DNA of 64,000 nt from Escherichia coli (GTDB lineage: Bacteria > Pseudomonadota > Gammaproteobacteria > Enterobacterales > Enterobacteriaceae): assembly GCF_016026235.1 (NCBI RefSeq), contig NZ_CP065614.1; one strand, given 5' to 3'. Shown here piece by piece: positions 27,001 to 30,000 of this stretch. The first letter of the stretch is position 1, and the number at the start of each line of letters is the position of its first letter. The position numbers are program-made.

Positions 27001-30000
27001 CAGTTTGTGTAACGTGGGTAACTCGTCACAGAAAAACCACACACGACGGTTACGGTTTTCTCCCATTGCCAGCAGACCACGAATGGCAATGGACAGCCAC
27101 ATGGAGATCACAGGCTTCAGGGAGGCATGGGTGTCGGCGTTCGACGAAATAAACAGCCAGCCGTTTTTCTGATCTTCCCGGACACCCCGCATCCAGTCAC
27201 GTATGGTGAAGGGTTCACCGTTATGCTCAATCCCCTGCAGGTAACGGATGGCTTTCACGTAGTTGGTCAGCACAGCACGGATGGAAATCGCCGTTTTCTC
27301 AATTTTCTCTTCCACCAGGTTGGCCGCCGGTGAATTACGCAGGAAGGTACGCAGTTTTTCAATTTTGATGGAAAGCAGTGTGTCCACCAGTTTGCTGTAG
27401 CTGCGGTTGGGGTCATTACGCATCAGATACGCCGCTTCCGCAAAAATGGTACGTCCTGACCCCTGCCAGAACGGGTCCTCTTTTGTACCCATCGGGATCA
27501 GAGTATTTGCGGTATTATCAAAATCCGGCTGTGTCAGGCACTCCTTCCACAAATCCCATGCGGCACAGCGGGCATCCAGCGGATTCAGGATTTTATCGAT
27601 GGAGGGATCATAGTAACTTTTAACAAATTCCCCTGAACGGTCATAAATCACCACCATATCTCCACGCTGACGGGCGTAGTTGGCCAGACGACGGATAACT
27701 TCCGACTTACCGGCCCCGACCGTGCCGTGCAGACAGAAGTTCTGGATTTCGGAATCCCGGATAATCGGCAGGTCGCCAATCCGGATATCGGAGTCCCTGC
27801 CGTCTTTTTTCAGCATCCGGGCAACGTCTTTCGGATTGTCTGTCAGCTGACGACCACCTGTGACTTCATTTTCGCTCTGTTGTTTACCCTGACGCCCCAG
27901 AATCCAGGAGACAACAAAGAAGGTGATCAGGCAAATAACCAGTGCCACAACTGCGGCCAGAACGAATGCGGACCATAGCTGCTCTCCGCACCAGATCATA
28001 TATTTATCATGCAGCACCTGAGCAGCGTTCATCCGGAAGGTTTTGCCGTAATACTGAATCTCATATACCGGCTGAGACTTGATTAAATCCCGCATGCCTT
28101 CCAGCGTGGTGCACCACCAGTAAATACAGCCATTCACAAACGTCTGCCAGCTTATTTTTACCCATAAAACCAGACCAACGAGTATCCAGAAAAAAATAAA
28201 CAGGCAGTAAAGCATAATATTGGCGATCTGGCTGAACATGCGGATACGCATGGACGCAATCTGACCGCCCTGGGTCATATCCTTTGCGTTAAAACTCATG
28301 ATGATATTCCGAAGAAAGAAAGTCAATCGGACTGATTATTAATGATGAAAAGATTAATAACCGTTAAATTCCGGCTTCGCCGGCAACACTTCACGGTCGC
28401 ACAAAGAATTTGCACAACCGCTCAGTGTTTTCATATTTATTTCGGAAACGCCGGGGAGAAATAAAATTTATTTTATTTCTTTCCGGGGTTGGACAACGAG
28501 CAAAGCGAGGCGTCAGTCAGGAGGCCAGCAGGGCTGGCCCGGATAATTTTCTTGACGTCATTAAAGTTAATAAATAAAGATCAGCTATTTATCGTCATAA
28601 GCATCCATATTTGATCAACACCTGATGAATCCTGATCAACAGCAACTGGCTCAATTGAAAGTGACCATATTTCTTTACCATTGACAATACAGGAAAAGTC
28701 ATCAAAGAAATAACCTTTATTTACATACTCATCCAGTTTTTCTGTTTGAAATCTATACGCAATCTTTTGTTTTTCAAAACTCTGATAAGAATCCCTGAAT
28801 GCTTCATATGCTCCGAAATGAGCATACAATCCCATATCACGAAAGGCTTTAGCAACTTTATAGCCGGATTCAATAAAGGTATCAGAGGTGAATTTCTTAA
28901 TTCGTCTCTGCCCTCCACTTATAGCACATAATTTTTCCACATTCACTGATGGTGCCGCTACTTGTTTATCAACAAACAGAGCCGGAGTATATAGGAAATA
29001 CGTATCAGAACCGCCAGTACGGGTGATATAATTATAATTCTCATTATGAATGTTATACATTATCTGGTCGGACAAAAATTCTCTTATATGTTTATTCTTA
29101 TATTTATATAAAGTTCCTTCAGATACTTGTGTACTTATGCATCCCTGAATGAGGAAACAAATTAATAACACTATGCATTTTCTGATTAACACGACTGCCC
29201 CCTTTATTCCATAATAGGGATTATATATGAGACTGGTACAGTCTTTATCCAGTCTCATCCTAAATTACAATATATTAGCAATTGATTTGGCCAGCTGGTC
29301 TTCGAGAACCGGTTTCGCCTCTTCAAATTTCAGGTTAACCTTGTTCGCATTTGAGACCACACGGGTCTGGTATTTATGCTGGTTACCTGTTTCAGTACTG
29401 GTCTGAATTTTCGCACCGGATGTTCCCTGACGCAGGGCGGCAACATTATCCGTTCTGACGCTGGATTTTGTCCGTTCAGCTATCTGCACATCGGTAATCA
29501 TGGTGTAATTGGTGTCTTCCACCATCGCATCTGCAGCCATCCCCACCAGACCAGCAGCAAGACCCACACCGAGCGTGGCACCTGCAGAACTGGAATTATA
29601 TCCGGTAATACCGGCACCTAACGCTGCACCAACTGCGGCCCCTTCATAGCCCTGGTTCAGCCAGCCCTGAGACTCCCGCAGATCCATCTTATCGGCTTTC
29701 AGCACATTCGCCTGAATCCAGTAGTAGGCTTTATCCGGAGAAGTCACCACCTGATACCCTTTTGCTTTCACAGCATCAGCAATTTTGCCCTGCAGCCCAC
29801 TCATGTCTTTATCAGACGTGTTTTTGATCTGCAGAAATACCGTGCGTTCGCTGGCGGGTTCAAGCCAGATGGTCTCACTCATCTGAGTCTTCACCTCAAG
29901 GTTACGCTTCTTGATTGCTGTGCTCATCGCACCACACCCTGAAAGGGCCAGAGTGGAACTGACCAGTGCAACCATCATCAATTTTTTTGTTTTCATCAAA

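Follow-up and report, generated by a model that had tools for sequence, protein, structure and literature searches.

A conserved lipoprotein family of the F-like plasmid exclusion module, with a candidate role as a TraS analogue

The interval between traT and traD in a plasmid-borne transfer operon of Escherichia coli carries a lipoprotein gene, here given the provisional label X, that is a member of a genuine, conserved and unnamed family associated with the F-like plasmid exclusion module. The gene was studied in a stretch of 64,000 nucleotides of contig NZ_CP065614.1 (NCBI RefSeq assembly GCF_016026235.1), which we refer to as the window. In the textbook account, exclusion by F-like plasmids is the work of TraS and TraT. 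The reading that we favour, and that we hold tentatively, is that X is a non-homologous analogue of TraS which would intercept the TraG protein of the donor, as the primary factor where no TraS is encoded and as an accessory one in the window. A preliminary description of this gene had suggested surface exclusion, receptor masking or an accessory defence function against phages or plasmids; among these, exclusion is favoured by the comparative evidence, namely the position of X, its occupancy of the traS slot in some plasmids and its pairing with a variable patch of TraG.

Gene X occupies positions 28581-29192 on the minus strand, from a GTG start to a TAG stop, and encodes 203 amino acids (aa), as established from the list of open reading frames (ORFs) and from the sequence itself. 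On the same strand it is preceded by traG (30550-33390), traS (30028-30531) and traT (29265-29996), and followed by traD, which begins at 28299. The traT gene, which encodes the surface-exclusion lipoprotein, lies directly upstream of X across a gap of 72 nucleotides (nt), and the 167-aa product of traS is an entry-exclusion protein of the R100/pSLT type that spans the membrane several times. The longest ATG-started ORF at this locus spans 28581-29258 (225 aa). The conserved product begins at the GTG codon at 29190-29192, and a Shine-Dalgarno sequence, AAAGGGGG, can be read on the minus strand 5 nt upstream of it (29198-29205); further upstream the X homologues have no sequence in common. These results bear out the earlier proposal of an ORF of about 200 aa with a GTG start and a lipoprotein signal between traT and traD. 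An identical 612-nt coding sequence (CDS) is present in RefSeq as the hypothetical protein WP_235837329.1, carried by the IncFIA/FIC plasmid of E. coli FDAARGOS_945, which is 100% identical to the window over 2.4 kb.

Comparison of X with four homologues by the Nei-Gojobori method yielded ratios of nonsynonymous to synonymous substitution rates (dN/dS) of 0.10-0.19, and gene X is therefore real and under purifying selection. Its AT-rich composition, its GTG start and an annotation that reads merely "hypothetical" could point to a chance or decaying ORF without function. We consider the probability of this negligible and count it as refuted by the selection analysis: the dN/dS values, together with a lipobox kept in 16 of 16 full-length relatives, show that this is not a chance frame, lipobox and cysteines stay invariant down to 26% identity, and the structure model is confident. 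Annotation by PGAP frequently starts X at an internal methionine, giving a 159-aa product devoid of the GTG start and the signal peptide, as at 6130-6609 in both L021 and L022, two of the homologous loci that we compared (WP_025649166.1 and WP_025861836.1). Such calls drop the lipoprotein signal, and automated surveys would therefore miss the envelope location of X.

The signal peptide (residues 1-17) and the lipobox L-I-Q-G-C are encoded at 29139-29192 on the minus strand, with the predicted lipid-modified residue, Cys18, at 29139-29141. The N-terminus reads MLIRKCIVLLICFLIQG, followed by the cleavage point and the cysteine, with Ile at position +2. Across the 16 full-length relatives, which span 26-97% identity, every member has a PROSITE-type lipobox and none has Asp at +2, where I, V, S or T is found instead. 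Asp at this position is the rule for retention of lipoproteins in the inner membrane (as stated in PMC8923210), and its absence, in Enterobacteriaceae, predicts sorting to the outer membrane for X. The mature form of each of the 16 members contains exactly two cysteines, and C89 and C168 are invariant throughout the family alignments. Mature X is polar and has no membrane-spanning segment. An AlphaFold2 model built on a 19-sequence alignment (mean pLDDT 82, pTM 0.74) shows an alpha/beta domain in which residues 108-159 form a long helical hairpin and the C-terminal part a three-stranded sheet.

The impression that X belongs to no recognisable family withstood profile and fold searches alike, none of which retrieved a characterised family. 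No match was found in Pfam for X alone or for any member of the family, nor for X in NCBIfam, PHROGs or PADLOC; a family-profile search of PDB sequences was also negative, and Foldseek searches with the X model retrieved the X family alone from AFDB50 and nothing from BFVD. Literature searches with the interval and the protein accessions found no paper on X, and three papers on F-plasmid genomics make no mention of it. The family is very small and comprises some 20 clusters in a set of 5.8 billion proteins, where the single sequence retrieved 6 and a profile 16; a set of 1.8 billion proteins yielded 12 representatives, and 100,044 species-representative genomes contained 2 loci. Of 5426 E. coli genomes that are complete, 93 carried X, every time on a plasmid, and so did 75-76 of approximately 4000 F-like plasmid records of PLSDB. 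At about 2% it is an optional gene, as had been supposed, and many of its carriers are large plasmids of Shiga toxin-producing E. coli (STEC), Shigella and Salmonella.

All homologues at least 50% identical to X lie within the traG-traD module, in several arrangements. In the window and in a Klebsiella plasmid the order is traG-traS-traT-X(-traD). In L002 and L003 it is traG-X-traT, with X starting 6 nt past the traG stop, in the TraS-type position between traG and traT, and with no other TraS candidate. L014 to L016 and the Providencia locus L005 have traG, a TraS-like gene, X and then traR through to traD, with no traT. Finally, in L004 and the Salmonella plasmid pSCD1 a reverse ORF separates traG from traT, traS is absent and X follows traT, as it does in the window. 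The reverse ORF in this pSCD1-type traS slot encodes 103 aa and matches no family (L004 6740-7051; L021 4737-5048, minus strand). The traG-traD module is highly plastic. Distant homologues were found elsewhere on transmissible elements, which is consistent with the favoured reading: between traJ-like regulators and traM on an F-type plasmid, directly after the integrase and beside a PilV-like shufflon protein in Dickeya-type mobilisable islands, and among the cargo genes of a Photobacterium MOBH plasmid; others lie after ccdB and among the cargo genes of a Shewanella contig.

The pairing of X with TraG concerns a short region of this protein. According to the account in PMC9797247, which cites Audette et al. 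2007, TraS specificity is set by TraG residues 610-673, where the F and R100 proteins, 93% identical overall, are 17% identical. In the window, the traG segment homologous to this region encodes residues ~600-690 and was located from TraG alignments at 31321-31593 (minus strand). Among PLSDB plasmids, pSE11-2 and others encode a TraG 92-93% identical to that of L002, and in these plasmids the slot after traG is filled by a typical TraS with multiple membrane-spanning segments. A comparison of five plasmids with this pSE11-2-like backbone revealed that, apart from residues 620-700, their TraG proteins are 97-100% identical, and that three alleles occur inside this patch, which aligns with residues ~610-680 of F/R100-type TraG. 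Allele A (pSE11-2, pSA20051401.1 and p204A1-64K) goes with a 216-aa TraS, allele B (pERL03-1416-2) with a 303-aa TraS that is 25-26% identical to the former, and allele C (L002 and L003) with X. Allele C is absent from PLSDB, where the closest sequence is 76% identical. Likewise, between pSCD1, which has X and no TraS, and pSLT, which has TraS and no X, the lowest internal identities of TraG fall in the patch (72% and 55%). Such a pairing of patch and slot is what one would expect of a cognate entry-exclusion pair in which X would take the part of TraS. Candidate couplings to other genes were ruled out. X is not linked to one traS allele: R100-like traS genes without X are very common, p899091_1 combines X with an F-type TraS, and the traS of the window occurs together with X in 69 records. 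Nor does X co-vary with the TraN tip, as X proteins 96-99% identical accompany tips (the central regions of TraN) that are 20-27% identical.

Taken together, we propose that X is an outer-membrane-anchored lipoprotein within the F-like exclusion module that would act in the plasmid-bearing cell as a potential recipient, blocking incoming F-type conjugation. The likeliest route would be interception of the periplasmic C-terminal domain of donor TraG. In L002 and L003, where X fills the traS slot, and in pSCD1 and L004, where TraS is missing, X is the sole candidate partner of TraG; in the window, where both TraS and TraT are intact alongside it, it may be an extra exclusion determinant, perhaps aimed at another exclusion group. 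The outer-membrane location, the contact with TraG and the exclusion phenotype are all inferred. Unrelated lipoproteins have precedents as exclusion factors in TraT, Sfx (PMC11493245) and TrbK (PMC8923210).

Several observations weigh against this proposal. The co-variation comes from few independent events, that is, three alleles on one backbone plus one looser comparison, and the TraG patch is variable anyway, so that allele C could be the remnant of a lost TraS. X proteins 96-100% identical are found with an R100-like TraS, with an F-like TraS (p899091_1) and with none, and alongside differing TraG patches; because near-identical X accompanies differing patches, X of the window type is not cognate to its own TraG patch. 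Between the window and L014, X is 50% identical and TraS 28%, so that X resembles TraT in this respect and not a fast-diversifying specificity partner. The known entry-exclusion proteins reside in the inner membrane (TraS, and TrbK by its +2 Asp), whereas X is predicted to reside in the outer one. Approximately 98% of F-like plasmids do without X, and the Shewanella and Photobacterium homologues have no transfer genes nearby.

X shares with TraS its place in the traG-traT/traD exclusion module, up to the exact traS slot in L002 and L003, as well as an AT-rich composition and, for the occupant of the slot, co-variation with the TraG specificity patch. On the other hand, their sequences are not similar. 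TraS is hydrophobic, spans the inner membrane several times and has a C-terminal NPATG...GGN motif, while for X a soluble alpha/beta domain attached to a lipid anchor is predicted. X is also far more conserved, and in the window it follows traT and accompanies a TraS. Resemblance to TrbK/Eex of IncP and IncN plasmids and of pKPC_UVA01 (PMC8923210) lies in these being entry-exclusion lipoproteins encoded within the transfer region. They differ from X in their length of 69-151 aa, in the +2 Asp that keeps TrbK in the inner membrane and that no X member has, in the lack of sequence similarity and in belonging to a P-type and not an F-type transfer system.

The comparison with TraT leads to a different reading of the same position, which we regard as unlikely: X would be a TraT-like surface-exclusion or envelope-shielding lipoprotein of the outer membrane that hinders mating-pair formation or masks a receptor, acting through a conserved target instead of the TraG patch. 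X and TraT (PF05818, also a complement-resistance lipoprotein) are lipoproteins of similar size and similar conservation, unlike TraS, and X is predicted to be sorted to the outer membrane. In the L014 and Providencia plasmids, which lack traT, X takes its place, and elsewhere X is inferred to share a transcription unit with traT; near-identical X proteins alongside several TraS and TraG types would also fit such a role. A precedent exists in Sfx of IncC/IncA plasmids (PMC11493245), a lipoprotein exclusion factor unrelated to the earlier exclusion proteins that, like X, occurs on mobilisable islands too and, in plasmids of Photobacterium, among genes whose function is unknown. However, there is no homology to either protein: hhalign probabilities were 5.5% for TraT and 8% for the 286-aa Sfx of pSN254, with the signal peptide alone covered in both cases, and X does not match PF05818. 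The folds also differ, since TraT combines a beta-sandwich with a helical barrel (PMC11733297), whereas the X model has the helical hairpin and the three-stranded sheet. Sfx adjoins traN and its specificity follows TraN, whose tip X does not track. Moreover, a TraT-like role leaves the co-variation of the traS slot with the TraG patch unexplained.

Equally doubtful is the view that X is envelope cargo unrelated to exclusion, lodged in a recombination-prone spot, such as an orphan immunity protein to a toxin that acts in the periplasm, a phage-receptor blocker, or a serum-resistance or host-interaction factor. The traG-traD hotspot does host assorted genes (a membrane protein of 245-259 aa, DUF2726, vapBC and, in pPROV099, a 165-aa secreted protein), and both the large STEC, Shigella and Salmonella plasmids among the carriers and the distant homologues among cargo genes would suit this view. 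Yet no toxin partner adjoins X in the more than 12 contexts examined, neither PADLOC and PHROG matches nor a viral fold match in BFVD was obtained, and close homologues are restricted to the exclusion module in three deeply diverged F lineages. Still less probable is a role on the donor side, in which X would assist the stabilisation or separation of mating pairs, for example by modulating TraG or TraN. It would agree with the location of X within the tra operon beside traG in L002 and L003 and with the function of TraG in mating-pair stabilisation (PMC9797247), but 98% of transfer-proficient F-like plasmids lack X, X is kept intact in the window though an insertion sequence (IS) breaks traD, and X is found on mobilisable islands that have no mating apparatus.

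The traT-traD interval itself takes three forms: it may be empty, it may contain X precisely between the traT stop and the spacer hairpins, or it may contain the gene of an unrelated protein of 245-259 aa beside traD. In an evenly spaced sample of the ranking of F-like plasmids, roughly two-fifths were empty and two-fifths had the unrelated protein. The supposition that X is not a standard component of this interval was upheld, with the qualification that a gene of another family often sits there. This other protein (230-259 aa, with a single membrane-spanning segment) adjoins traD, matches nothing in NCBIfam and is annotated as hypothetical (L018 639-1418, L019 639-1376, L003 9636-10328, L031 9492-10184); it too may be an uncharacterised component of the exclusion region.

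Inverted repeats form the hairpins of the traT-traD backbone at 28444-28541 (minus strand), with arms at 28447-28467/28470-28490 and a GGCCAGC-AGG-GCTGGCC hairpin at 28523-28539. This is likely the terminator region of traT, now downstream of X. No promoter-like site was seen in the 72-nt traT-X spacer and, as X lies between the traT stop and these hairpins, it is expected to be co-transcribed with traT. A second, diverged copy of the spacer at 15222-15293 lies downstream of a DUF2726-like ORF (15290-15940). In both 28444-28530 and 15222-15293 the hairpin is flanked by GGAAACGCCGGG and CCGGGGTTGGACAAC-GAGCAA-GCGA-GGCGTCAG; both segments form hairpins, with differing interiors and RNA fold z values of -4.0 and -2.1, respectively. 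The two copies suggest a reused terminator-like module. The palindromic repeat noted earlier after X and at ~15290 is thus real. Its use as a cargo marker was ruled out: the 28.4-kb copy is identical in the traT-traD spacer of plasmids without X, and it belongs therefore to the backbone and not to X.

Alignment with pE303_IMP6, representing the empty-spacer plasmids, placed the exchangeable segment that contains X at approximately 28528-29315 (minus strand); this takes in the last ~50 nt of traT beside X, which carry 7 synonymous changes. Against the Klebsiella ATCC 13883 plasmid, synonymous divergence (dS) is 0.05 for X and 0.21-0.42 for traG, traT and traD. The low dS relative to the flanking genes, together with the changes at the 3' end of traT, indicates that X moves between F backbones by homologous recombination, which, judging from these changes, extends into the 3' end of traT. 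Between the window and Salmonella pSCD1, on the contrary, X, traG, traT and traD all have a dS of ~1.0. As its divergence is in step with that of its neighbours, X is an old F-like resident and not a recent insert, contrary to the initial view of a foreign insertion. The AT-rich composition on which that view leaned was confirmed, with a G+C of 0.34-0.37 for X against 0.51-0.58 for traD/traI and 0.47-0.55 for traT; as evidence of foreignness it is weak, since traS, a resident gene, has an equally low G+C (0.36-0.39).

Other features of the module and of its relatives also emerged. TraS proteins only 25-28% identical share a C-terminal NP[AS][TS]G..M followed by a Gly-rich G.N/GG stretch (window 30028-30531, L014 3079-3615, L031 7903-8553, L034 3662-4573, L036 3680-4174). 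The motif occurs twice in the 303-aa variant of pERL03-1416-2, and may represent a conserved functional element. Providencia pPROV099-NR1 (L033) encodes a TraG 80% identical to that of L014 and neither a TraS-like protein nor X; its gene after traG encodes the 165-aa protein mentioned above, which has a signal-peptide-like N-terminus (L033 7944-8441). The Dickeya-type integrated mobilisable elements contain a fixed block of integrase, X homologue, convergent PilV-like Shufflon_N gene, MobA relaxase and type I restriction-modification genes (L012 8476-12023, L025 5684-9530, L026 197-3927).

In the window, the transfer operon is damaged. A 1.7-kb IS91-family element (24726-26443) breaks the 3' part of traD, of which the 5' part remains at 26444-28299 (minus strand), and the traD ORF ends inside the element at 26395. 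In the reference plasmid with the 100% match, traD is intact and encodes 732 aa, so the plasmid of the window is probably not self-transmissible. Despite this damage, traS, traT and X are all intact. Further IS91-family copies lie at 6448-8165 and, partially, at 11243-12729, and IS66-family genes, which encode a transposase of 533 aa and an accessory protein resembling TnpB, occupy 37828-40122 on the opposite strand within the tra operon, between the traF/traQ and traN regions.

Exclusion governs the entry of plasmids into plasmid-bearing cells and thereby the spread and coexistence of resistance and virulence plasmids. A survey of IncF plasmids from wild Salmonella found traS in 13.8% and traT in 100% of them (PMC7242723), and many natural IncF plasmids have no recognisable traS. 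With somewhat less confidence than the TraS-analogue reading itself, we suggest that X may represent a third, previously unrecognised class of F-like exclusion protein, an outer-membrane lipoprotein of novel fold that replaces TraS as partner of the TraG patch or is stacked with TraS and TraT, widening the range of plasmids excluded. If true, X would offer a testable answer to the question of how plasmids without traS achieve exclusion, and would show that recognition of TraG is possible from the side of the outer membrane.

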